Positions 5,886 through 58,788 of a stretch of 64,000 bases of DNA are shown here, piece by piece. The notes beneath the pieces were generated by a model. It saw only the letters and a program-made list of their open reading frames with translations. It did not search any database and was not told where the DNA came from. Made by a program: the position numbers and the translations under genes. How positions within the stretch are numbered: the stretch's first letter is position 1; every line of letters starts with the position of its first letter. This DNA comes from an uncultured Planctomycetia bacterium. GTDB taxonomy: Bacteria; Omnitrophota; Gorgyraeia; Duberdicusellales; 4484-171. The stretch covers positions 146,276 to 210,275 of the forward strand of contig CAZAYU010000001.1 of the NCBI GenBank assembly GCA_964489445.1. Reading direction: 5' to 3'.

Positions 5886-7805
5886 TCAAGTAAATAAATC
5901 CTTCAATTCCTTAATTTCTTTTTCTATCTCTAAAATCCGGTTCTTGATTTCTTTAACTCGACAATCATACTCTTTCTTTGTCTGCTCGCTATGATAACTC
6001 TTTTCATTAGCCAAAGTACGCTTTTTTGCATAATGCTCTAGCTCGATGGCCTCTTTCTCTTTTCTTAGTTTTTTTATTTTTCCAGATATTTTAAAATTAT
6101 TTCTCTTAATTTCCGCTTTTGATTGTTTGTTTTCTAGTACTTTGGTAACTTTTTTTTTCTTTACTTTGTCCCTATTTAATCCAGAGCCTGTTTTTTTGCT
6201 AACATCCTTATCCGGAAAACTTTGTTCATTGATTTTTCCCCAATAATAGTCAAAATTACCTGGAAATTTTTTTACTCTGCCAGATTGAACATCAAATACA
6301 GTATTGGCAACTGACCGCACAAAATGAATGTCGTGACTAATAAATACAACTGACCCCTCATACACATTAAGAGCCTTGATTAACGCTTCTACTGCGTCAA
6401 CATCTAAATGAGTTGTCGGCTCATCTAGCAATAAAAAATTAGGAGGTTTAATTAATAACTTAGCCAGAATTAACCGACTCTTTTCACCACCAGATAAAAC
6501 ACTTACTTTCTTATCTACATCGTCACCGGAAAACAAAAACAAACTTAAAATAGTCCTGATTTTTTCTCCTGTCACTGACCCCCCACTTGACAAGCAAGCT
6601 TCTTCAATTACAGTATTTGAAGAACTCAAGATATCCATCCTTCTTTGTGAAAAATAGCCAATAGTAGTATTGTGCCCCACCAGTCTCTTTCCTTCTTCAA
6701 TGTCAATTACTCCGGCTAAAATCTTTAAAAGTGTTGATTTTCCAGCTCCATTTTTACCAACTAATACCGCTTTTTCTCCACGGATAATCTCAAAATCAAA
6801 ATTTTTATAGACTAAGATATCTCCGTAAGATTTTTTTACTTCTTCTAACTTAATTACCTGATACCCACTATTATCTACAACAGGAAATTTAAAATTTCTC
6901 ACGCTCTCTCGTCGATTTGCAGGAAGATCTATTGTCTCCATCTTATCTAATACTCTTTTTTTTGCACGAACTTGCGAAGCTTTATTGGGCTGTCCATGAA
7001 AGCGTTCAGCAAAATTTTTAAGTTGTTTACGTTTTTTTTCCTGTTCTGAAAATTGCTTTAATAGGTAACTCTTTTTTTCATTTTCAATCCTTTTGTAGTC
7101 TTCATAGTTTCCTTTAATTTTCACAATACTTTTATTTTCTAAAACTAAAATATTATTAGTAGTCTGATCAAGAAAATCCTTATCGTGAGAAATCATAATA
7201 AAGGTCCCTTTAAAATTAAGTAAGTAGTCCTTAAACCATAAAGCAGCCTCTAGATCTAGGTGATTCATCGGCTCATCTAGAAACAAAATATCATAATGAC
7301 AAACAAGAAGCTTCGCTAACAAAACACGCATTTGCCAACCACCACTCAACTGCTTTACAGGACGTAAGAAATCACTTTCGCTAAATCCGAGCCCCATCAA
7401 CACTGCTTTTGTTTTATACTCTAGGGTATAGTAACCTAAAAATTCTAACTCGGACAAAACATCTCCGTATCGTGTTAAGCTAGACTGGCCTTTTTCTTCT
7501 AAAGCCTTTTTTTCATCTACCAGGCACCTCATCTGCTCATCTCCTCCAACCACTTCCGACAAAATTAATGCTTCCGACTCAAAATGAGCTTCTTGCGGTA
7601 AATACCCAATACGAATATTTTTTTGGCCTTCTACCTGCCCACCTGTTACTTCTTCCTTGTTGAGAATAATTGAAAAAAAAGTACTTTTCCCTGCACCGTT
7701 TGGACCTACTAACCCGATTTTTTCTCCTCGGTTAATTGTTAAATTCACCTTATCAAATAAAACGTAATGACCATATTTTTTGGAAATGTTGCTTATTTTA
7801 ATCAT
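5886..7805 (-). CDS. ABC-F family ATPase (Uup/EttA-like translation factor; two ABC domains plus C-terminal coiled coil)
   Basis: Two Walker A motifs (GPNGAGKST and GKNGAGKST) and two LSGG signatures. Lys/Glu-rich C-terminal coiled coil. No TM domain. 639 aa. Confidence 0.85.
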   Translation of the reverse strand: MIKISNISKKYGHYVLFDKVNLTINRGEKIGLVGPNGAGKSTFFSIILNKEEVTGGQVEGQKNIRIGYLPQEAHFESEALILSEVVGGDEQMRCLVDEKKALEEKGQSSLTRYGDVLSELEFLGYYTLEYKTKAVLMGLGFSESDFLRPVKQLSGGWQMRVLLAKLLVCHYDILFLDEPMNHLDLEAALWFKDYLLNFKGTFIMISHDKDFLDQTTNNILVLENKSIVKIKGNYEDYKRIENEKKSYLLKQFSEQEKKRKQLKNFAERFHGQPNKASQVRAKKRVLDKMETIDLPANRRESVRNFKFPVVDNSGYQVIKLEEVKKSYGDILVYKNFDFEIIRGEKAVLVGKNGAGKSTLLKILAGVIDIEEGKRLVGHNTTIGYFSQRRMDILSSSNTVIEEACLSSGGSVTGEKIRTILSLFLFSGDDVDKKVSVLSGGEKSRLILAKLLIKPPNFLLLDEPTTHLDVDAVEALIKALNVYEGSVVFISHDIHFVRSVANTVFDVQSGRVKKFPGNFDYYWGKINEQSFPDKDVSKKTGSGLNRDKVKKKKVTKVLENKQSKAEIKRNNFKISGKIKKLRKEKEAIELEHYAKKRTLANEKSYHSEQTKKEYDCRVKEIKNRILEIEKEIKELKDLFT

Positions 7806-7937
7806 ACAATACCTTACATTTGCTAGAAATAGCTTATGTCGTATTCACAGACAAAGCCAGACAATATATTTTTAGTTTTTAGCACCTAGGACAGAAGCAA
7901 TTAAAATTGAACAACATACAAAATTCTGTTGATAGTG

Positions 7938-10900
7938 TCAGCCAGATTCTGCTTTAATTTTTTCGGCAATCTCTCGAGGAACCTGAGCATATTTTTCAAA
8001 ACGCATAGAACAATTAACCCTTCCACTACTCAATGAACGTAAATTAGTAGTATAACCGAACATTTCCGAAAGTGGAGCTTCTGCTTTGATAATTTTCTGC
8101 TTATTCTTGGTATCCATCCCTAATATTTTTCCTCGACGAGAACAGATATATCCTACAATACTACTAGAGTATTCCTCAGGGGTGATAATTTCTAAAGCCA
8201 TATACGGCTCTAAAAGAATTGGATCGCACTTCATAAAAACACTACGAAAGCATCCCTGTGCAGCAAGCTTAAATGCCAACTCAGAAGAATCAACATTATG
8301 ATAAGAACCGTCGGTAAGATCAACCTTGATGTCTACTACCGGATATCCGGCATAAATTCCCTTTTTTATTACTTCCAGCAAACCTTTCTCCACCGCCGGA
8401 ATATAGCTTTTTGGTATTCTTCCTCCAGTAATACTATTTTTAAATTCAAACCCTTTACCTTGTTCATTAGGAGAAAACTCCATAACTACATGACCATACT
8501 GTCCTCTTCCTCCAGTTTGCTTTATGTGCTTGTACTCTTCGGATAAGGTAGACAATATTGTTTCCTTGTAGGCTACCTTTGGTTGCCCTACAGAAGCATC
8601 GATCTTGAATTCACTTTTCAATCGATCAGCGATAATCTCCAAGTGTAGCTCACCCATCCCGGAAATAATTGTTTCTTGAGTCTCATCGTCAATTCTTGCC
8701 GAAAACGTAGGATCTTCTTCGGAGAGTTTTGCCAATGCTTTGCTTAACTTATCCTGGTCAGAACTACTTTCCGGTTTGATACTAATAGAAACAACTGGAT
8801 CAGAAAATTCCATCTGCTCCAATAATATAGAGTCACTTAAATCGCAAAGCGTATCGCCAGTTAATGTATTGTTTAAACCCACAGCAACGGCAATATCTCC
8901 AGTAAATACTGCTTCAATATTCTTCCGCTGGTTTGCATGCATCTCTAAAATTCTCCCGATTCTTTCTTTCTTTCCTTTAACCGCATTCAAGATGTACGTA
9001 CCCGCCTTCAAACAACCAGAATACACCCTTATATACACCAACTTACCAGTGTGTGGGTCAGTTTGGACTTTAAACGCTAACGCTGAAAATGGCTCTTCAT
9101 CTAAAGGTTTTCTGAATATTTTTTTCTCTGAATCATCCGGATCCGTGCCTTCTACAGGAGGTAAATCAGAAGGCGCTGGAAGATATTTATTGACTGCATC
9201 CAACAGCATCTGGACGCCTTTATTCTTAAACGCCGAACCACATAATGCCGGAACAATTTTATTAGCTATTGTTCCTTTACGTATACTAGAAAGTAGCTCA
9301 TCAATGGTAATCGAATCTTCTGATTCGAGATATTTCTCCATCAACGAATCTTCTAATTCTACTGCTTTCTCCAGCATGATATGTCGATATTTACGAGCAA
9401 CTTCCTGATATTCTTCAGGAATTTCCGCTGTTCGAAAATCTTTGCCCATTGAATCATCATCATAGATACAGGCCTTCATTTGGATAAGATCAATTATTCC
9501 AGAAAATTTATCTTCCGAGCCAATAGGAATCTGTAACGGAATTACATTGGCATTTAAGTCTTTCTCAATGTTTTCTACAACTCCGAAAAAATCTGCACCA
9601 ACGCGATCCATTTTATTAATAAAAGCAATTTTAGGAACTTCATATTTATCGGACTGCCGCCAAACTGTTTCTGACTGTGGCTCTACGCCTCCTACAGCAC
9701 AAAACACAGCTACAGCGCCGTCTAGAACTCTTAATGACCGTTCTACTTCTACAGTAAAATCTACATGTCCAGGGGTATCAATAATATTTATCCGGTGATC
9801 TTGCCAAAAACAAGTAGTAGCCGCTGAGGTAATCGTAATCCCTCGTTCTTGCTCCTGCTTCATCCAATCCATTTGCGCTTTTCCATCATGCACCTCTCCA
9901 ATTTTATGAGAACGACCGGTATAAAACAATATTCTTTCGGTAAGAGTAGTTTTTCCGGCATCAATATGAGCCATAATGCCGATATTACGGACTTGGGATA
10001 GATCGCTTTTTCTTAACGGCAAATCTTCTTTTTGCCCTTTCTGGGAAAGAGATTGTTTATCTAAATTATTCTCTGCTGTTGTATCTAAAGAAGAAACATT
10101 CTGAATGCTCTTGTTAAATTCTTTATCTAAACCGGGAATAATTTTTTGAGAATTTCCTGTTTCAACATGGTTTAAAAAAGTATCCAGGTCTCTGGGTGAG
10201 ACTTCTTTTGTGACATTATTATTATCCTTATCTTGTTCTTTTTCTATAGACAACTCCTTATTAGATAATTTTTTTTCCTCAAGAGTGGTCGTCTCTTTTG
10301 CCTCCGGAGTCGATTCAGAAAAATATTTCTTTTCCATTTCCTTAACTCGATGAGATAAAGACATCCTTTCCTTACTCAAAGCTTCAAATGTCTCTTCCTT
10401 GCTTTTCAATTCCTTGTTACGAACTTCTAACTCTTGCTTTAGCTCTTCTACTTGTTCAGATAATAAATTATACTCATCCTTAGAAACCCACCCACTTTCC
10501 TTCTCTTTCTCCTTTATCTCTTTTATCTTACTCTGGTAATCACGGACCTCTTTCATGTAATTACTTATTTTTTCTTTTTGCTGCTTACTACTTTCCTTAA
10601 ATGACTCAATATTGCTATTTAACCCATCAATTGTCTTATTTAACTCTTCTAGTTCTTTTGTTGTATCTGCTAAATCTTTGTTTAAACGAACGTTTTTTGA
10701 AAATTCTTCCTCCAGCTGTTTTTCCTTATCCATCATTTTTTCTTGCAATTGAAAAACTGGGACTTTGTTATCGTTAATAATCTGCTGCTGACGCTCAAGC
10801 CATTGCTTGTTCTTGCGTTGCTTTTCGGTAAAATCCACTTCTTTTTTTTGAAGAATTAGTACTTTTTCTGCCAGAGAATTATTTTCAAGCTCGATTTTCT

Positions 10901-11102
10901 CTAATCGCTCGTTATCACCTTTCAGTTTATATACCTGTTGCTTAAGCTCTTTTATCTGCGTATTTAAAGAAGAAACTTTGACTTGAATAGCGCTATTATC
11001 TGCCTCACTAGAACGTAACTTATGTTTCCCAGAATGATCGCCCAAAGAATAAACCACTAAGCTAACCGAAACAGCAACTAAAAAATAAAGAAAAAATATC
11101 AT
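7938..11102 (-). CDS. elongation factor G paralog with ~365 aa N-terminal extension (TM anchor + long coiled coil + low-complexity linker)
   Basis: EF-G G-domain motifs: [25 protein letters not shown] domain IV tip is present ([18 protein letters not shown]). The C-terminal ~690 aa is EF-G length. The N-terminus has a hydrophobic helix ([21 protein letters not shown]) and ~230 aa of heptad-like K/E/L repeats. The reading frame is uninterrupted for 1054 codons. Confidence 0.8.
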
Positions 11103-11298
11103 TGTTTAACGCTACTATACCTCACCAAAATAAACTCACCTAGTATTTTCACCTATAGATTTACTTTATCCTATGTTTTTTGTCCTTCTGACTTATACTC
11201 CAACCAGATACCCATACACAAGATAAATTCTTATTATACTTTTTTGATGTTTAGTTGTCAAAAAATTAACACCTTTTAATTTTGCTTTTCAGGAAAAA

Positions 11299-11787
11299 AT
11301 GCTTGATGCTTATTTAAAAGATGATATAATTTTGTACATTATGATTGAAGATAGAATTTATCAAGAGTACATTCAAGCTTTGAGATCAAAAAACAAACAA
11401 AAAAGCGTGTTTTTAAGTTTCATTCGTGCTGAACTTAAAAATAAAGCAATTGATTTAAAAAAAGATAGATTAGATGACACGGAAGCCTTAGTAGTTCTCA
11501 AAAAACAGCAAAAAAAACTTAACGATCAAAAAGAAAGCATTACAGCTTCAGGAAGAATTAACATGGTTGACGACATTGAAAAAGAAATATCCTCACTAGC
11601 AGAGTACCTTCCGAAACCTCTAGGAGAAGACCAACTGCTAAAAATAATTGAATCAAAAATAGCCGCGATAGACAGCCCTTCAATGAAAGACATGGGAAAA
11701 ATAATGACATCTGTACTTTCCGAAGTCGGATTACGCGCTGATTCTAGGATGGTTAGTTCTATCGTTAAAAATAGGCTTTCTTCTTAA
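11299..11787 (+). CDS. yqeY: GatB/YqeY domain protein
   Basis: 162 aa. Typical YqeY features: N-terminal AYLKD...RIYQEY-like region and C-terminal GKIMTSVLSEVGLRADSRMVSSIVKNRL. Confidence 0.75.
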   Translation: MLDAYLKDDIILYIMIEDRIYQEYIQALRSKNKQKSVFLSFIRAELKNKAIDLKKDRLDDTEALVVLKKQQKKLNDQKESITASGRINMVDDIEKEISSLAEYLPKPLGEDQLLKIIESKIAAIDSPSMKDMGKIMTSVLSEVGLRADSRMVSSIVKNRLSS

Positions 11788-13287: not shown

Positions 13288-14223
13288 TTACCCTCTCAAC
13301 AGGAGAAAAATAAAAACCGCTAAAATAGTTAACCCAACAGCTAAAACAATATAATCTAGAGAACCTTTCCTCTCCGGCTCACCATCAAGAGGCTCTTCTG
13401 AAACTGAAAAGTTATCCTCGAGATCTTCGGTAACCGAATTTAGGCTTTCTTTAACTAAATATTCATTTTCTTGTTTGCCAAGCGGCAAAGATTCTTCTAA
13501 GACTGGATCTGTCTTTTGATCGTCACTAGCGAGAACATCTTTAGATAAATCTGCAGTATTCGACAAATCTACTGTTTTCTCGTCAGTGTCATCGCTATTT
13601 TTTTTACTATCTAAATCCAATATTAATTCTTGATCTGCTTTGTCAGCCTTACCTAAATCAAGAGCTTCAGTTTCTGGAACAATGCCATCATTACTTAACT
13701 CTTGTCCGCCTACATCATTTAATTTGTCATCTTGTCCGGCACTTAGCCCTTCTTGCCTCTTTTCTTCGGTGAGATCAAGCTGTTTGTTTCCCGACATAGC
13801 TCTTTCATCATTTACTTTGTTTGATATTTTAGTGCCTTCTTCAGGAGGATTTTGGCCAGTATTAAGATTATCCTTGCCAATGGGGGCATCCATTAGATTC
13901 TCCACGCTTTCACCAGGAAAATATTCAACCTTTTCTTCTTCTGGCAAGGAATAAACGCCAGTATCTTCGCCTGCTTCAGAAGAAAGTGTTTTGTCTTTTG
14001 GAAAAACTTCTGGAGATTCTAACAGCTTATTTGTTTCTTCAGGTTTACCAGCATCTTGAAAAGAATCATCCGTAGGACTCAGAGGGTTATCCATAAGTTC
14101 ACCTAAAACTGCTCGACAATCATGGCAAACACACAAGTGTTCCTCTACTTGTTTAATTTCTTCTTCGCTGGCGGTATGTTGAAAATAACAGGGAATTATT
14201 TTTTTTATATCCTCACAATCCAT
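13288..14223 (-). CDS. zf-HC2 (anti-sigma-factor-type zinc finger) protein with long acidic low-complexity region and C-terminal TM helix
   Basis: The N-terminal HLCVCHDCRAVLGEL matches the H-x3-C-x2-C anti-sigma zinc-finger motif. There is a ~230 aa D/E-rich region and a C-terminal hydrophobic helix (LDYIVLAVGLTILAVFIFLLL). Confidence 0.55.
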   Translation of the reverse strand: MDCEDIKKIIPCYFQHTASEEEIKQVEEHLCVCHDCRAVLGELMDNPLSPTDDSFQDAGKPEETNKLLESPEVFPKDKTLSSEAGEDTGVYSLPEEEKVEYFPGESVENLMDAPIGKDNLNTGQNPPEEGTKISNKVNDERAMSGNKQLDLTEEKRQEGLSAGQDDKLNDVGGQELSNDGIVPETEALDLGKADKADQELILDLDSKKNSDDTDEKTVDLSNTADLSKDVLASDDQKTDPVLEESLPLGKQENEYLVKESLNSVTEDLEDNFSVSEEPLDGEPERKGSLDYIVLAVGLTILAVFIFLLLRG

Positions 14224-14322: not shown

Positions 14323-16341
14323 TTAGAACTTTAACTTAATTCCAACATAATAATTTCTTTCTGGCGAAGGATAAAATCCACGCGTAGTTCCAGATATATT
14401 AGTCGCCGCATACTCACTATATATTTCATTAAATAAATTATTAATTCCTCCAAAAATTTCAAAATTATTTTTATGGTAGCTCAGCTTTACGTTTGTAGTG
14501 TTAAAACTGTTTAATTTTGAGTATATATTATTAAGGTCGTTAATTAAATAAACTTTACCTCGGTATTGATAATCGACAAATAACGACCAATCTTGGGTTA
14601 GATCATATTTTACAGAAGCAGTGAATAGCGCTTTAGGTACAAACGGAACTTGTTTCCCGCTGTAAGATCCTTTTCTAAATACAGCATCAATAAATCGATA
14701 ACCCATTTTGATTGTTAAACAATCTAACGGAACCAACTGAACATTTATGTTGGCCCCCTGTCTACGTGTATTATCATAATTTTTATTCTCCCAAGTTGTT
14801 GGATCATAATAAATCTCATCTCTAATGCACATTTGAAAATAGTCTAAAGACACCTCCATTATAGAATTAAGCTGAGAATTTATCCCTACAGTTACCGCTT
14901 TAGACCGTTGTGGCCGTAAAGATTCATTTATCGAAGCAACCGGCCAAGTAACAAGATACTCATCAGTTTTTCCGACTCTTAACCCACGTGAAAAGTTTAA
15001 ATACATATTAGTTTTTTCGAAAAATTTATAGTTTAGCCCCAACTCATATAAATCTTCTGTAAAACTCACACCGTCATCAGTACTAGAAGCACCTCGATAA
15101 TCAAATGTAAACTTTTCTTTCTGCAAGCGCCACCCCAACCGAGCAGAAAATTTCTCGGTTAAATGGATATCATCTTGTAGAAATAACGATACACTCCTTC
15201 GATCAATGTCTGTAGAAGATGAAGAATCATCTGCGGAAAGATCTGAAGTATACAATTCAAATCCGGTTATTAACTCATGTTCCCATGAGTACGAATTAAA
15301 GATAAATAATAACTGAGGCTTAACTTGAAAATTACTAATTCGCTTATCAGTACTCATACTGTAAGAAAGAAGCTCCTCAAGCTCATTTTTATTACGAAAG
15401 AAAACATCAACTGATCCAACTATTGACTCAGAAAACATATTTTTAATATTTAATCCTAACGTATTATCCTCTACGCGAGCATTATTTAATGGAGTAGTTG
15501 AATCTCTACGAGAATATCCCTGTTTTGATTCAGATTCAGTAATGTCATCCGGTAAACCATAAACATACTTATGATGCGTTAGGTCAGCACTTACAACTAA
15601 GTCTTCTGTTGGTTGAGAAGCAAAACTTGTAGTGACATATTTTGAACGATAATGACTATTTTGACGATAGCCACTCGTTGAATGATATTCACCAAAAATT
15701 CTAAACGATAGTAAATCTGTTCCTCCTGAGACTTCAACAGATTCCTTAGTTGAGCGATAACTACCTGCCTGAAAATTAATCTCTGAACCAACCTTCTTGG
15801 GCCTTATTTTCTTAGAAATTATATTAATCACTCCTCCGCTTGCATTATCCCCATACAAAACCACCCCGCCACCTTTAACAATCTCAATCCTATCAACATT
15901 TTCTAATGGTATTTGTGTCCAGTCAACACCACTCATATCAATATTATTTACTCTTCGTCCATTAACAAGAATTAGTATATTCGAGTTAGCATTATCTCCA
16001 AAGCCCATCATATCAACAACAGTTTTTATGCCATTTCCATAATAATCACTAATATTTAATTCAGGTACTGTCTTTAAAAAATTGATAACTGTAGAAGCTC
16101 CCGTATTCGATATTTGCAAGCTCGTATACACATTTGTTGAGTACGGAGCTAGCGAATTACTTTTTGCTTGAATTCCGGAATAAGGAGTGACGATAATTTT
16201 CTCAAGCTCAATCGCCTCATCTTTATTGCCTGATGGAACAATGTATTCTTGGCTTTCAGAATCAACCAGTATTTCTTCAGCTTGCACCATAAAACAATTA
16301 CAAAAAAACAATAACACTAAAAAAAATCCAAACCTTTTCAT
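14323..16341 (-). CDS. TonB-dependent outer-membrane receptor (BtuB-like, cobalamin/siderophore)
   Basis: Signal peptide and plug-domain motifs (IVTPYSG, DRIEIVKGGGVVLYG). The C-terminal residue is Phe (..GIKLKF). It sits directly downstream of a cobalamin riboswitch. Confidence 0.85.
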   Translation of the reverse strand: MKRFGFFLVLLFFCNCFMVQAEEILVDSESQEYIVPSGNKDEAIELEKIIVTPYSGIQAKSNSLAPYSTNVYTSLQISNTGASTVINFLKTVPELNISDYYGNGIKTVVDMMGFGDNANSNILILVNGRRVNNIDMSGVDWTQIPLENVDRIEIVKGGGVVLYGDNASGGVINIISKKIRPKKVGSEINFQAGSYRSTKESVEVSGGTDLLSFRIFGEYHSTSGYRQNSHYRSKYVTTSFASQPTEDLVVSADLTHHKYVYGLPDDITESESKQGYSRRDSTTPLNNARVEDNTLGLNIKNMFSESIVGSVDVFFRNKNELEELLSYSMSTDKRISNFQVKPQLLFIFNSYSWEHELITGFELYTSDLSADDSSSSTDIDRRSVSLFLQDDIHLTEKFSARLGWRLQKEKFTFDYRGASSTDDGVSFTEDLYELGLNYKFFEKTNMYLNFSRGLRVGKTDEYLVTWPVASINESLRPQRSKAVTVGINSQLNSIMEVSLDYFQMCIRDEIYYDPTTWENKNYDNTRRQGANINVQLVPLDCLTIKMGYRFIDAVFRKGSYSGKQVPFVPKALFTASVKYDLTQDWSLFVDYQYRGKVYLINDLNNIYSKLNSFNTTNVKLSYHKNNFEIFGGINNLFNEIYSEYAATNISGTTRGFYPSPERNYYVGIKLKF

Positions 16342-16404: not shown

Positions 16405-16482
16405 TGCACCCTGATTTCTTGACCCGGAAAATTGACTAATAGATTCTCTATTCCACGAAAAACCTATTCTTCTCTATTTCTT

Positions 16483-16682
16483 GGCAGGTCTTCTGACTTA
16501 CCTTGCTCTTCGCCATCCTTCCCATCCAAATAATTTTAGACAGTGGATTTAAAACATTGGCGAAGAGTTCCTTTCTTGCGAAAGGCGAAGGCTTACAGCA
16601 CCGGGAGTGTCTTCGAATTTCCGTTTAAAACGAATCACGAAAGTTCCCTATTAAGCTTAAAACAGCACCAAAAAACATTTAT
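16483..16682 (-). promoter_or_regulatory. cobalamin (B12) riboswitch aptamer
   Basis: Minus strand contains GGTGC...AATAGGGAA...GTGATTCG, the B12-box-like CCACTGT, and the 3' consensus GATGGGAAGG...AGTCAGAAGACCTGCC. These match hallmark conserved segments of the cobalamin riboswitch class. The genomic context is btuFCD plus a TonB receptor. Confidence 0.6.
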
Positions 16683-16704
16683 CTAGATGTGAAAGAACAA
16701 CCAT

Positions 16705-16808: not shown

Positions 16809-17588
16809 CTAGTTCTTTACGGTTATCCAAGGTTTCAGCGAAGAAGGATTCTTACTTATCTGGACATCAGCTTTGTAGGCTTTTAGCATATTCTCTTGAG
16901 TCAACACTACTTCTGGAATGTCATTACCGAGGATGGTTCCGTTATTAAGAAGAATTATCCGGTTGCAATATTCGCTTGCTAAATTTAAATCATGCAACAC
17001 CATAACTACTGTTAAATTTACCTTAGCGTTTAACTCTTTTAATAAAGCCATTATTTGAGCTTGATATCCGATATCTAGATGTGCGGTTGGCTCATCCAAA
17101 AATAACAACGCTGGCTCTTGAGTTAACGCCTTGGCAATGATAACCCTTTGTCGTTCCCCCGCACTTAATTGATTAATTATTTTGTACTTTAGGTTCCCTG
17201 TTTTAGTCTGCGCTAGACTTTTCTCGGCAATAAGAAAATCTTGCTTTGTTTCTGCTTGCATCCTATTTAAGTACGGAATCCTACCCATTAATACTACTTC
17301 CCAAACAGAAAAGGGAAAATTAATTACTGTATCCTGCGAAACGAAAGCAATTTTTTTGCACAATTCTTTTAATTTAATTTTATAAATATTTTTACCTTCG
17401 AATAAAACATTACCACTAGTTGGATAAATCACGCGAGTAATCAATTTTAATAAGGTTGATTTTCCTGAACCATTCGGACCAATAATTCCCAAAAACTCAC
17501 CTTTGCCTACATCAAAGGAAACATTTCCTAACACATCATTTTTCTCATACCCTCCATTTAAATTTTCTACTTTTAGCAAAGTACTCAT
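16809..17588 (-). CDS. ABC transporter ATP-binding protein, iron-siderophore/cobalamin type (FecE/BtuD-like)
   Basis: Walker A GPNGSGKST, LSAGERQR signature and Walker B LLFLDEPT. 259 aa. Confidence 0.85.
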   Translation of the reverse strand: MSTLLKVENLNGGYEKNDVLGNVSFDVGKGEFLGIIGPNGSGKSTLLKLITRVIYPTSGNVLFEGKNIYKIKLKELCKKIAFVSQDTVINFPFSVWEVVLMGRIPYLNRMQAETKQDFLIAEKSLAQTKTGNLKYKIINQLSAGERQRVIIAKALTQEPALLFLDEPTAHLDIGYQAQIMALLKELNAKVNLTVVMVLHDLNLASEYCNRIILLNNGTILGNDIPEVVLTQENMLKAYKADVQISKNPSSLKPWITVKN

Positions 17589-18556
17589 GAACTAACTATT
17601 TTCTTTTGGTTTAGTTTTAACAGGACTATGAATAGTGGAGCACCAATCAACGAAGTTATTACTCCAATCGGAATTTCAATGGGTGCTAATAGACTTCGAG
17701 AAAGGGCATCAGAAATAACTAAAAATATAGCACCCCCTAAACAAGCTGTCGGAATAAGAATTCTATGGTTCGGGCCTACTATCAAACGCATCATATGAGG
17801 AACAATTAACCCGACAAAACCAATCATTCCAGTGACCGAAACTATGGCTCCGGTAACCAATGATGTTATTACAAACACAATTTTTTTTATACTTTCACTC
17901 TTGATACCTAAATGAACTGCCTCTTCTTCGCCGATACTTAAAGCATTTAAATCCTGTGCTATGCTGAACATAAAAATACTTCCAAAGCATACAACTACTC
18001 CTACTATAGCAAGAAGCTTTAAATCGTAAACTTGCAGGCTACCCAATAACCACCAGGCTATTGCATGCATTGCTTCATTGCGGGAAACTGACACTAAAAA
18101 TACAATTACCCCAGAAAATGTTACTCCCACCACAACCCCTGATAAAATAAGTGATTCTACAGGAATTTTTCCGTTGCTTCTTGATAAATAATACACTAAA
18201 ATAATGCTTACCAATGCTCCGCTAAATGCGGAAAAAGGAAGAAACACAGCACTAACACCAAAAACAATCGCAAGTATCGCCCCTAATCCAGCTCCACTTG
18301 AAGTTCCCAAAAGGTATGGGTCAGCTAAGGGATTTTTTAAGGTTGCCTGAAGAACCGTTCCACAAACACTCAAGCCGGCCCCAACTAATATTGCTAAACT
18401 AACACGCATAAGTCGTAAATAAACAATTTGCCGGTATTTTTCTGATAATAGATCGAAAAAAGAAATTTTTACCGCTCCTTTGGTGATCGCAAAGAAAATA
18501 GCACCCAATAAAATCAAAAACAATAACACAATAATTCTTTTACCTGCACTATTCAT
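17585..18556 (-). CDS. ABC transporter permease, FecCD/BtuC family
   Basis: Polytopic membrane protein of 323 aa with a FecCD-type hydrophobic profile. Overlaps the ATPase gene by 4 nt. Confidence 0.85.
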   Translation of the reverse strand: MNSAGKRIIVLLFLILLGAIFFAITKGAVKISFFDLLSEKYRQIVYLRLMRVSLAILVGAGLSVCGTVLQATLKNPLADPYLLGTSSGAGLGAILAIVFGVSAVFLPFSAFSGALVSIILVYYLSRSNGKIPVESLILSGVVVGVTFSGVIVFLVSVSRNEAMHAIAWWLLGSLQVYDLKLLAIVGVVVCFGSIFMFSIAQDLNALSIGEEEAVHLGIKSESIKKIVFVITSLVTGAIVSVTGMIGFVGLIVPHMMRLIVGPNHRILIPTACLGGAIFLVISDALSRSLLAPIEIPIGVITSLIGAPLFIVLLKLNQKKIVSS

Positions 18557-19446: not shown

Positions 19447-19477
19447 TATGCCTGCTCTTTGCTTTTTCGCTAAAACA

Positions 19478-19550
19478 TGCCCCCACCCCGACTCGAACGG
19501 GAATCCCAGCCTTAGGAGGGCCGTGCTCTATCCATTTGAGCTATGGGGGC
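19478..19550 (-). tRNA. tRNA-Arg (anticodon CCT)
   Basis: The minus strand folds as a cloverleaf: acceptor GCCCCCA/TGGGGGC, D-arm GCTC-AAATGGATA-GAGC, anticodon loop CT-CCT-AA, T-arm CCCGTTCGAGTCGGG. CCA is not encoded. Confidence 0.85.
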
Positions 19551-19644
19551 AAGAATTTTACAAGATAGAATTCACTCTTAAGCTGTAAGTTTTAAGAATT
19601 AAACCTTGTTTTCCTAATCTTCCAATTGGCAACTTATAACTTTT

Positions 19645-55982: not shown

Positions 55983-56025
55983 TGCATAGATTACACATAA
56001 AAAACATTATAAAGGGAGGGAAAGA

Positions 56026-57435
56026 ATGATGAATAAAAAATTAATACTTTGTTTATTGTTAATACCTATATCTTTATTGATACTTCCTATCTCTTCTTTT
56101 GCCCAAACAACCATCCCTGAAGAAAGAATTACAGTTATTACTTATTATCCTGCGCCTTTTGGTGTATACAATGAATTACGATCAAAGAGAATGGCAATTG
56201 GCAATACATATTATGATCCAGCAGGATTTTGCTTTGATGATGGAACAGGAAACTGTGACCCTGCTTTACAAATAGAAATTCCTCAAGGAACCGACTTAGT
56301 AATAGAAGGAAATGTGGGAATTGGCACTGTAGACCCTAAAGAACAGCTTAGCGTACATAGTGGCACAACACAAGGGCAGATTCATATTTCAGGGGTTTCT
56401 GATGGCGGGCTTACTTATTCTGCAGTTTATTTGCACGATAATACTGCGGATAATTGGAATAATTGGGTTTTGACTCATAAAAACGGAACCGGGGATGTAA
56501 TGGAGAATGATTTTTGGCTTTCCTATTGGAATGCTGCGGGCGTTCTAGAAACTCCTTTTGCAATTGATCATGAAAGCGGTAATATAGGTATTGGAACCAC
56601 TGTCCCTTCGTACAATTTGGATGTTGCCGGAGAAATTAATGGTTCAGATGGTGGAAGTAGGGTTGGTCTTTTAGCACATCCCAATTATCCAAGTTTATTT
56701 ATCGTTAGTTACAGTAATGAACCAAGTCATACAACGGATTCAGGTAATGGTGGGCATCCGGTAATTCATACATATGATATCGGTGGGACAGTCACTTCTC
56801 CGTCAAATACCAAAAAAAATAATCCGATCTTATCTCTTGTTGGTTCGGGTTATTACAGCCCGACCCAAGCAGTACAAGCAGCAAGATTGCAATTTGTTAC
56901 TGAAGATAATTTTAGTTCTTCACATGCTAAAACAGCAATTGTTTTTTATCCCGGAAATAAAGTTATTACTATGGGTGACGGAAAAGGGTCTTATCTAGAA
57001 GCGCTAAGAATTACCAGCCAGGGAGCAGTAACTTATAAACCTAGAAATACTGCACCACTTGCATCTGGCTCGGCAGCACCTGGCTTAGAAGGCAGCCTTT
57101 ATTACAACAACGGAACTGGATCAGAAAGCGAAGGTTTTAAATACCATGATGGAGACAATTGGAAGGATTTTGGGGGAAGCTCAACCGGATGTGATGAAAC
57201 CTGTTCATACTACAGAAGCGGTTCAGATTCTCTGCCTTGCGTAAAAAAAGATGAAAGTAACTGTTCCAAATTAGGCTATACCGGAGGGTGGAATACTAAA
57301 CCTATTGAAGGTTACCAAAGCTGCGGAAGAGTTATCACGGTTAATACCGGACCATCAACCGACCAACAACACTATAGCTATGTCTGCGGTACTACAGGTT
57401 GGGTTTTAACTGGATACGGCGAAACTCACTACTAA
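56026..57435 (+). CDS. secreted Cys-rich protein with tail-fibre-like GNVGIGT repeats (469 aa)
   Basis: Signal peptide (LLLIPISLLILPISSFA). Two copies of a GN[VI]GIGTxxP...L.V motif. The C-terminal ~90 aa holds 8 Cys. It is one of only two plus-strand genes in the window (the other is yqeY). Confidence 0.6.
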   Translation: MMNKKLILCLLLIPISLLILPISSFAQTTIPEERITVITYYPAPFGVYNELRSKRMAIGNTYYDPAGFCFDDGTGNCDPALQIEIPQGTDLVIEGNVGIGTVDPKEQLSVHSGTTQGQIHISGVSDGGLTYSAVYLHDNTADNWNNWVLTHKNGTGDVMENDFWLSYWNAAGVLETPFAIDHESGNIGIGTTVPSYNLDVAGEINGSDGGSRVGLLAHPNYPSLFIVSYSNEPSHTTDSGNGGHPVIHTYDIGGTVTSPSNTKKNNPILSLVGSGYYSPTQAVQAARLQFVTEDNFSSSHAKTAIVFYPGNKVITMGDGKGSYLEALRITSQGAVTYKPRNTAPLASGSAAPGLEGSLYYNNGTGSESEGFKYHDGDNWKDFGGSSTGCDETCSYYRSGSDSLPCVKKDESNCSKLGYTGGWNTKPIEGYQSCGRVITVNTGPSTDQQHYSYVCGTTGWVLTGYGETHY

Positions 57436-57552
57436 ATAAAACTTTATTTATTAAAGCCATACTTACCCTACTTCTTTAAAAATCAATACTCATTTTTGAT
57501 ATAAAGGTTATTTTTTTAATTCTGATAACTTTTATTAGATTGCAATCAAGAA

Positions 57553-58788
57553 TTAAGCACGAGCTAAATTAGAAATAATTTCTGTTAAGGTAGGATGAAT
57601 AAATAAGCATTTTTTTACATCTTGCAGTGTAAGTTTATTTTTAATACACAACGACATCACATTGATTAGTTCTCCGGCTGATTCTGAAATTATTCCGGCA
57701 CCGATTATTCTTTCTTGCTCATCAACAATCAACTTTATAAACCCGTCATTGTCCCCATAAACAACAGCAGAAGAGACTTTTAGAAAACTTGACTTTATTA
57801 CTTTACACTCAATTCCCTTTGCTTCAGCCTCCTCCTCTAATATGCCCGCCTGAGCAATTTGGGGACAAGAAAACACACATTCCGGCAAACCATAATAGTC
57901 TTCTTTGTCTATCTGTCCGGCAATGTTTTTAAGACAAATTTCCGCTTGATACTCGGCAGTATAAGCATAAAGTTTTTTTCCGTTAATATCGCCACAAGCA
58001 TAGATATTACTAATATTGGTTTTCATGAATTTATCCGTATTTATCCAGCCTTTATCATTCAATAAAATATCGGCATTCTTTAGCTGCAGATTATTCGCAT
58101 TCGGTTTACGTCCTAACGCTGAAATCACTAAATTAAAATCATCCAAATTATACTCAGCTACATCTTGTGATGTTTTTATGTTCAGCCCTCTTTTTCTTAG
58201 GATTGTTTGAAGACGCTGAGAAAGATAGCTATCAAAACCAGGAAGAACACGATTTTCTTTTTCAATCAATAAAACATCTTTGTTGAAATTATGTAAAAGA
58301 CAACTGAATTCTATTCCTATTGCCCCGGCGCCAACTACTAAAATTTTATCCGGCAATTCTTCTACACCAAATAAATCTTGTGCGAAAATAACTTTAGAGT
58401 GGTTTATCAAGCTTTTAGGCGATGAACCTCCCGCAATAACAATATACTTTGCAGCGACCACCTTCTCATCCACTCTCAGCGTAGTATTGTTTAAAAATGA
58501 AGCTTCCCCCCAGAAAAAATTAACACCTTGTTTTTCTAAGAAAGAAGTAAGCGGAGATTTAATTTTTTTTATAATCTCTCTACTACCCTCCAGGCAATTT
58601 TTCCAGGATTGATTGGTTCGTGAAGCTTTAAGAAGAAATTTTGTCGGAATGCACCCTTGGTTTAGACAGGTTCCACCTAAAGTTTCAGGATTTTTTTCAA
58701 TTATGACTGTTTTTAACTTATATTTTAAAGCGTTTTTTGCGCAGGCAATTCCTGCTGGCCCTGAGCCAATTATTGCTAAATCATACAT
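57553..58788 (-). CDS. FAD-dependent pyridine nucleotide-disulfide oxidoreductase, dihydrolipoyl dehydrogenase-like
   Basis: DLAIIGSGPAG. Redox-active GGTCLNQGCIPTK. C-terminal HPTLTE. 411 aa, shorter than typical Lpd. Confidence 0.75.
   Translation of the reverse strand: MYDLAIIGSGPAGIACAKNALKYKLKTVIIEKNPETLGGTCLNQGCIPTKFLLKASRTNQSWKNCLEGSREIIKKIKSPLTSFLEKQGVNFFWGEASFLNNTTLRVDEKVVAAKYIVIAGGSSPKSLINHSKVIFAQDLFGVEELPDKILVVGAGAIGIEFSCLLHNFNKDVLLIEKENRVLPGFDSYLSQRLQTILRKRGLNIKTSQDVAEYNLDDFNLVISALGRKPNANNLQLKNADILLNDKGWINTDKFMKTNISNIYACGDINGKKLYAYTAEYQAEICLKNIAGQIDKEDYYGLPECVFSCPQIAQAGILEEEAEAKGIECKVIKSSFLKVSSAVVYGDNDGFIKLIVDEQERIIGAGIISESAGELINVMSLCIKNKLTLQDVKKCLFIHPTLTEIISNLARA

Follow-up and report, generated by a model that had tools for sequence, protein, structure and literature searches.

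A 64,000-nt stretch of genomic DNA (hereafter the window; contig CAZAYU010000001.1, nt 146,276–210,275, assembly GCA_964489445.1), deposited under the name of an uncultured Planctomycetia bacterium and placed by GTDB in the Omnitrophota, carries a gene for a long form of translation elongation factor G (EF-G). In the encoded protein of 1054 aa, a complete EF-G is preceded by a predicted transmembrane (TM) anchor, a coiled-coil stalk and an acidic, disordered linker. The extension and the EF-G are almost certainly read as one coding frame, in an architecture that is real and conserved. An earlier note, written from the letters of the window alone, had proposed this arrangement and thought it undescribed. 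Full-text searching of the literature, the coverage of which is incomplete, turned up no account of an EF-G with a membrane anchor or a coiled-coil extension, and to that extent the note was right; the form is not unique to this genome and belongs to a phylum-wide family. On the sequence evidence given below, it is a conserved, unannotated and apparently undescribed EF-G architecture, for which a mechanism can be predicted. The textbook view is that EF-G is a freely diffusing cytosolic factor. If the predicted tethering is true, the protein would be, to our knowledge, the first natural case in which a core elongation factor of bacteria has a fixed place in the cell, and the local supply of a factor at the membrane as a limit on translation would become a testable question.

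Architecture of the long EF-G

The open reading frame (ORF) was reported in the earlier note as continuous over 1054 codons, and this was confirmed. A stop-free run over its first 361 codons has a chance probability of ~4e-15 given their base composition (41% A, 26% T), and no competing ORF of at least 60 aa was found over the first 1.1 kb of the long ORF. The coordinates of the gene and its parts are listed in Table 1.

The claim that the C-terminal part is a full-length EF-G was borne out by domain profiles and by invariant motifs. Matches to PF00009, PF22042/PF03144, PF14492, PF03764 and PF00679 are all above their cut-offs and follow one another in the five-domain order (GTP_EFTU 370–642, EF-G_D2 671–754, EFG_III 766–839, EFG_IV 841–959 and EFG_C 963–1048). 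The NCBIfam equivalog model for EF-G, TIGR00484, gives 1062.8 bits against a cut-off of 659.4 and aligns residues 364–1051 with positions 3–687 of its 691, while a full-length alignment to Thermus thermophilus EF-G scores 875 bits. The motifs AHIDAGKT (378–385), DTPGH (442–446), NKMD (496–499), GGRGQYGH (864–871) and DGSxHxVDSSE (931–941) are present, and across 21 long homologs there is no variation in the GTPase motifs, in the catalytic His of DTPGH or in either of the domain IV tip loops. In the full-length AlphaFold2 model, EF-G secondary structure runs from residue 371 on. The models for related factors score well below their cut-offs, both for EF-G2 (NF009377, 468.4 vs 890; NF058620, 481.5 vs 1000) and for tetracycline ribosomal protection proteins (NF012153, 400.1 vs 775), and those for RF3, BipA and LepA fall far short. 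By every feature testable from sequence, the EF-G part belongs to the canonical EF-G family and lies outside the EF-G2 and tetracycline-protection families. Only one alignment column consistently discriminates the EF-G parts of long forms from short EF-Gs. Since the motifs are invariant, long and short forms differ at a single such column, and the G domains are interchangeable between copies (see below), the tethered domain should be a working EF-G.

The N-terminal hydrophobic helix described in the earlier note is well supported. Residues 2–20 have a mean Kyte-Doolittle hydropathy of 2.42, AlphaFold2 places a helix at 2–19, and a comparable N-terminal hydrophobic helix is present in 28 of the 29 fused loci analysed. 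Over 20 homologs, the segment that precedes the helix contains on average 0.05 Lys or Arg, and the 25 residues that follow it contain 5.8. Because of this distribution, the positive-inside rule predicts that the N-terminus lies outside and that the stalk, the linker and the EF-G domain are cytoplasmic. The substrates of EF-G are present in the cytoplasm only.

The coiled coil of about 230 residues that had been proposed to follow the helix is supported by both heptad statistics and modelling. Hydrophobic occupancy of heptad positions a and d over residues 35–262 is 0.657, compared with 0.462 +/- 0.025 in shuffled sequences (maximum 0.537). An AlphaFold2 model of the N-terminal module (N-module), built with a 20-sequence alignment, shows a continuous helix from 34 to 203, a break at E-S-G-W (202–205) and a second helix from 208 to 260, with predicted local distance difference test (pLDDT) values >90. 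The stalk carries the motifs NK(Q/K)W, KEKxLExEFSKNV and ESxWVSKxEY, and six residues (W101, K126, K136, V138, W205 and L214) are invariant across the 20 aligned N-terminal regions. Comparison of the N-module with Pfam and PDB profiles returned generic coiled-coil matches only, all below cut-offs, and a Foldseek search with the model gave no match; no Pfam family accommodates the N-module, and it is without a detectable relative of solved structure. The cell-division proteins DivIC and FtsB resemble it in having an N-terminal TM helix followed by a coiled coil, and their family PF04977 matches weakly (16.3–17 bits against a threshold of 28.9, with 3 of 20 module homologs matching), but the N-module is 3–4 times longer, has its own invariant Trp motifs and lies outside a cell-division gene context.

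Between stalk and EF-G, residues ~259–360 have pLDDT values of ~25–30 in the full-length model. The earlier note had called this segment a Ser/Asp/Lys low-complexity linker, which holds for its low complexity and only roughly for its composition, as it is rich in E, K, S, L, N and T, with a net charge of -7. In the 27 loci where the linker could be delimited, its length varies from 38 to 116 residues and its net charge is always negative (-3 to -33). The whole extension measures 286–390 aa in 29 fused loci (median 344).

Table 1. Coordinates of the long EF-G gene, the parts of its product and associated features in the window.
Feature	Residues	Position (nt)	Strand	Basis or remark
Long EF-G ORF	1–1054	7938..11102	-	Single frame, ATG start, 1054 codons
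Start codon and TM anchor	1–20	11043..11102	-	Hydropathy, AlphaFold2
Basic disordered juxtamembrane segment	21–33	11004..11042	-	pLDDT <50; K/H/K/R residues
Coiled-coil stalk, ~225 residues	34–260	10323..11003	-	Heptads, AlphaFold2
Acidic low-complexity disordered linker	261–360	10023..10322	-	pLDDT, composition
In-frame TTG (Leu361), aligned with the ATG of the short paralog	361	10020..10022	-	Possible, unconserved internal start
Complete EF-G and stop codon	361–1054	7938..10022	-	Pfam and TIGR00484
G domain with G'		9177-9995	-	Pfam
Domain II		8841-9092	-	Pfam
Domain III		8586-8807	-	Pfam
Domain IV		8226-8582	-	Pfam
Domain V		7959-8216	-	Pfam
Gene-conversion tract (probable) shared with fusA1		9080..10004	-	~920 nt, essentially 100% nt identical
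Predicted sigma-70-type promoter, TTGACA-17 nt-TATAAT		11233..11261	-	12/12 consensus match, ~130 nt 5' of the ATG

Distribution across the Omnitrophota

A full-length search with the window protein showed that about 75 of the best 120 clusters are represented by proteins of 943–1081 aa. Many of the long matches (proteins of 1000–1081 aa) align over 99–100% of the query at 52–62% identity, and the named ones are annotated as 'elongation factor G [Candidatus Omnitrophica/Omnitrophota]'. When one genome from each GTDB species was scanned with an N-module alignment of 20 sequences, 59 loci were retrieved, almost all of them from Omnitrophota, with a few carrying generic or evidently mis-binned names. 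At 38 of the 59 the module and an EF-G are encoded in one ORF of 1000–1084 aa, so that fused homologs of the N-terminal part, which the earlier note had suggested should be sought, do exist; at 14 others the module is a separate, stand-alone gene of 258–412 aa. The remaining loci are cut at a contig end (five), carry a frameshift in the linker (one, L089) or yielded no module ORF to the script used (one, L090). The EF-G parts of the fused species are 63–74% identical to that of the window protein, which shows all the features of the long EF-G family, namely a TM helix, a motif-bearing coiled coil, an acidic linker and an EF-G in one ORF.

The stand-alone modules (in the 14 GTDB genomes and at one further locus, L005) always occur in the context pheS-pheT-rarA-module-PPIase-uvrD-...-rny, the last gene specifying RNase Y. 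The start of the module gene overlaps the stop codon of rarA/mgsA, and no EF-G gene is nearby. A hidden Markov model (HMM) search of 1.84 billion cluster representatives detected 496 proteins with the module at E <= 0.001, of which 66 were at E <= 1e-30, and the matches include a large set of stand-alone proteins of 215–230 aa that consist of a TM helix and a coiled coil and share the motif ExxWVxKxEY. Fused forms are probably under-represented in this library, since at the 50% identity level they fall into clusters with other EF-Gs. For residues 1–360 by themselves, a word-indexed search had returned a single stand-alone protein of 398 aa (P0006), as though the extension were nearly unique, but this is ruled out by the full-length and profile searches, which recover hundreds of relatives. 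Because the N-module is a separate gene in 14 genomes, it is, as judged from its distribution, an independent module that became fused and not an outgrowth of EF-G. The coexistence of stand-alone and fused N-modules also provides a Rosetta-stone hint, suggesting that the translation machinery has partners in a family of small membrane coiled-coil proteins.

Both kinds of EF-G are encoded on the complete chromosome CP070797.1, where the genes for an EF-G of 698 aa and for a long form of 1051 aa are separated by 1.6 kb. In the NCBI annotation the latter (L049, 10001-13156) is a protein of 797 aa, whereas the frame with the conserved TM helix spans 1051 aa; the annotated start cuts off the anchor and the stalk. 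Plain 'elongation factor G' labels, together with a truncated start of this kind (one record checked, CP070797.1), hide the family from routine surveys.

A second EF-G gene and gene conversion

The suggestion that the long gene is a second EF-G copy was upheld by the finding of fusA1, which codes for an EF-G of 694 aa at a separate locus (L023:10644-12728). On a 272-kb contig its context is deaminase-deaminase-NYN-fusA-glycosyltransferase 9-DUF4254-DEAD helicase. Neither gene lies in a str operon, a location that is typical of EF-G genes without being defining. As the earlier note had stated for the long gene, S12, S7 and EF-Tu are absent from the 64-kb window, and no other translational GTPase was found in it. 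Because canonical S12-S7-EF-G-EF-Tu operons have been reported in Omnitrophota chromosomes (10.64898/2026.06.07.730766), the genome may also have a third fusA in a str operon.

A codon alignment of the long gene with fusA1 revealed a shared, nearly identical tract (Table 1) that spans the G domain, G' and the beginning of domain II. Outside the tract identity drops abruptly to 60–73% (nt) or 50–80% (aa), with many synonymous differences. In a neighbour-joining tree of the C-terminal halves, the short forms of many species make up one clade and the long forms branch outside it; in the corresponding tree of N-terminal halves, the long form of the window falls within the short clade and pairs there with its own short paralog. 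These patterns indicate that gene conversion has recently replaced the G-domain half of the long gene with sequence donated by the short copy, and they show the G domains to be interchangeable between the copies.

The shared tract explains the mosaic single-nucleotide polymorphisms, the many contig ends and the probable chimeric contigs seen at this locus. In sample 3300022882, contigs of 146, 139.5 and 261 kb, which are among the largest, all end in the tract, the first arriving from the side of the NYN gene, the second from that of the coiled coil and the third from that of the ABC-F gene. Because these three large contigs end there, the short paralog co-occurs in the same population.

Integrity of the fusion

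In principle, two genes could have been joined through the loss of a stop codon, through a frameshift or through chimeric assembly. Certain observations lean that way: the locus is hard to assemble, with many contigs breaking in the 5' part of the EF-G region, one genome (L089) has the frameshift in the linker noted above, and three sequences resemble chimeras between the paralogs. Two of these, contigs L001 (1-2659) and L002 (1-2607), join the NYN-side upstream part of fusA1 to a fusA2-type 3' half followed by the ABC-F gene, and the third, P0131 from another species, joins an N-module to a short-type EF-G. They are probably assembly chimeras formed through the shared tract, with genuine recombinants as a possible alternative. 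The junction between linker and EF-G, however, sits just outside the repeated tract and is unaffected by it. A look-up with the neighbouring YqeY gene retrieved ten contigs from different samples, and seven of them run from the coiled coil across the junction into the EF-G at 99–100% identity, so that contigs of seven other samples have a junction identical to that of the window contig. The fusion is repeated in 38 other species, including one with a complete chromosome, that come from different projects and, by contig naming, different assemblers, and the N-module is conserved at the level of individual residues. An artefactual origin of the fusion is therefore extremely improbable, and the earlier note's view that it is genuine stands.

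The 90% identity cluster of the window protein contains two members of 1054 aa (on contigs of ~0.5 Mb) as well as members of 693 and 651 aa. The 651-aa member comes from the 261-kb contig, which ends within the gene. The 693-aa members (P0004 and P0005) are on 2.6-kb contigs with an NYN-domain gene upstream and an ATG that has a normal Shine-Dalgarno sequence, and their homology to the window starts at 10004. They were considered as strain alleles that arose by deletion or rearrangement, but this is ruled out by the separate NYN-side fusA locus, which has a diverged 3' half and different downstream genes. Three further contigs from three samples (L013, L012 and L017) end in the linker-coding region, at 10095 and 10123, upstream of the paralog tract; they match the window at 100% up to their ends, which may reflect population variation in the linker.

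Comparison with known systems

Residues 361–1054 are like canonical bacterial EF-G (FusA; T. thermophilus, PDB 1dar/4v5f) in their five domains, G motifs and tip loops. The window protein differs in the 360 added residues of anchor, coiled coil and acidic linker, and its gene differs in lying outside the rpsL-rpsG-fusA-tuf operon and in coexisting with a gene for an unextended EF-G. A second gene of the EF-G family, with room for a division of labour, is also seen with EF-G2/EFG-II (Thermus, Mycobacterium, Bacteroidetes), mitochondrial EF-G1/EF-G2 and Tet(M)/Tet(O). Compared with these classes, the EF-G part of the window protein has barely diverged from the short copy, and it is set apart by its N-terminal tether. 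We know of no such tether in the known classes of EF-G paralogs.

The best sequence match in the PDB is an engineered L9-EF-G chimera (PDB 4wpo), which likewise has a protein fused N-terminally to EF-G and is still bound to the ribosome. It is an artificial construct made for crystallography, without a membrane anchor or a coiled coil. The N-terminus of EF-G is reportedly free when the chimera is ribosome-bound.

In eukaryotes, kinectin binds eEF1-delta at the endoplasmic reticulum (ER), an instance of elongation-factor anchoring at a translating membrane (PMC12768868), and p180 (RRBP1) is found at the rough ER (PMC3326322). Like the long EF-G, both proteins have an N-terminal anchor and a very long cytoplasmic coiled coil, by which elongation machinery (eEF1-delta/eEF1B) or ribosomes are retained at the membrane. 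They have no sequence relationship to it, and their link is a non-covalent one to the exchange factor eEF1B, in contrast to the covalent fusion to a translocase in the window protein.

Proposed role and alternatives

We infer that the protein has the membrane topology described above, stays uncleaved and acts at membrane-bound ribosomes. An anchored, uncleaved EF-G copy that serves ribosomes at the membrane has about an even chance of being the right explanation of this gene; the mechanism by itself, that is, service to membrane-bound ribosomes, is advanced tentatively, at somewhat short of even chances. Under this proposal the EF-G domain would hang from the inner membrane on a long flexible leash, and the tethered copy would raise the local concentration of a translocase and recycling factor around ribosomes that translate at the membrane, during co-translational insertion or secretion. 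The untethered second EF-G would handle bulk translation. By arithmetic from the model, the 170-residue helix would measure ~25 nm and the second helix ~8 nm if extended, and the 100-residue linker would have a flexible reach of ~10 nm and a contour length of ~35 nm. Stalk and linker together would be long enough to reach the factor-binding site of a translocon-docked ribosome.

Giant proteins are numerous in the Omnitrophota, 94% of them with TM helices or signal peptides (bioRxiv 10.64898/2026.06.07.730766), and a tethered EF-G would help a phylum that is rich in very long membrane and secreted proteins. A broader form of the proposal is that translation is spatially split, with the tethered EF-G for ribosomes at the inner membrane and the soluble EF-G for the cytosol. 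In bacteria such a system would parallel the anchoring of elongation factors at the rough ER, possibly keeping the ribosome on the translocon during synthesis of giant (10,000–147,000 aa) membrane or secreted proteins in tiny cells; we regard it as possible though speculative.

Several observations weigh against a role at membrane-bound ribosomes. The link with giant proteins is a co-occurrence within one phylum, and the gene neighbourhoods gave no links to SecYEG, YidC or the signal recognition particle. Because stand-alone modules occur in 14 genomes with no EF-G nearby, the function of the module does not require covalent linkage to EF-G. The in-frame TTG of the window species could also yield some free EF-G from the same mRNA.

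That last point bears on a rather unlikely alternative, in which the anchored EF-G is kept off ribosomes as a reservoir or inactive precursor and is released under regulation, by proteolysis of the linker or by internal initiation. The ~100-residue disordered acidic linker would be open to proteases, and the TTG of the window species coincides exactly with the ATG at which the short paralog starts; LepA/EF4 is also said to be held at the membrane. This TTG is preceded by a poor Shine-Dalgarno sequence, however, and only 4 of 29 fused loci have an ATG, GTG or TTG in frame where a canonical EF-G would start, so that an internal start codon at the junction is not conserved. A soluble EF-G is already separately encoded, and the conserved residues of the stalk (W101, W205 and EFSKNV) would be needless in a simple precursor. 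It is distinctly unlikely that the EF-G domain is mainly a handle by which ribosomes are parked or positioned at the membrane, for localisation or hibernation, with catalysis left to the soluble paralog. The geometry of stalk and linker could indeed keep a ribosome within tens of nm of the membrane, and the presence of two EF-G copies permits a division of labour, but a domain that was no more than a handle should have lost its catalytic constraint. The invariance of the GTPase motifs and of both domain IV tip loops in the 21 long forms, the single column that separates long from short forms, and the recent, harmless replacement of the G domain with the one from the short and presumably catalytic copy all argue against such a loss.

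The conserved and EF-G-free context of the 14 stand-alone modules, and their many relatives of 215–230 aa, would also fit an incidental fusion, in which a module that works at the membrane or envelope in its own right was joined to a duplicated fusA by rearrangement, the result being harmless or merely co-regulating. A neutral anchor on a factor of essential type is unlikely to last so long, however. The fusion has been kept in at least 38 species, whose EF-G parts are 63–74% identical to that of the window protein, and the acidity of the linker is conserved though its length varies; we therefore consider an incidental fusion very improbable.

Genomic surroundings

The promoter match listed in Table 1 is the only perfect one within 7700-11400, where internal candidates match at 9/12 positions, which is the level expected by chance; the predicted sigma-70 promoter is a dedicated promoter of the long EF-G gene. 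The leader of ~124 nt showed no match to an Rfam family of regulatory RNA. The divergent neighbour is a YqeY-domain gene (11341-11787, plus strand), and the downstream gene (5886..7805, minus strand) specifies an ABC-F protein (NF000355, 457 bits against a cut-off of 380). The earlier note had remarked on this pairing of two ribosome-binding factors. The ABC-F gene is present as described, but it lies between EF-G and MscS in the window species only, and because the adjacency is not conserved in relatives the argument from 'two ribosome factors side by side' carries no weight. In 13 related species the order is UppP, two small conserved hypothetical proteins of 78 and 88 aa, YqeY (on the opposite strand), the long EF-G, one gene and MscS.

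Elsewhere in the window, a cobalamin riboswitch (RF00174, 80.8 bits; 16466-16687, minus strand) lies directly 5' of a gene for a TonB-dependent receptor (14323-16341), and FecCD/ABC transporter genes (16809-18556) are found just upstream of the riboswitch. An ORF of 311 aa (13288-14223, minus strand) has an N-terminal CxxC...HxxxC that resembles, by motif only, zinc-finger anti-sigma factors, followed by a long acidic low-complexity middle part and a C-terminal TM helix. The sole tRNA of the window is a tRNA-Arg with anticodon CCT (19477-19551, minus strand). GC skew is about -0.2 along nearly the whole window (1-64000), in which the long ORFs are almost all on the minus strand, with a break at 56000-58000, the site of the single large plus-strand ORF (56026-57435).

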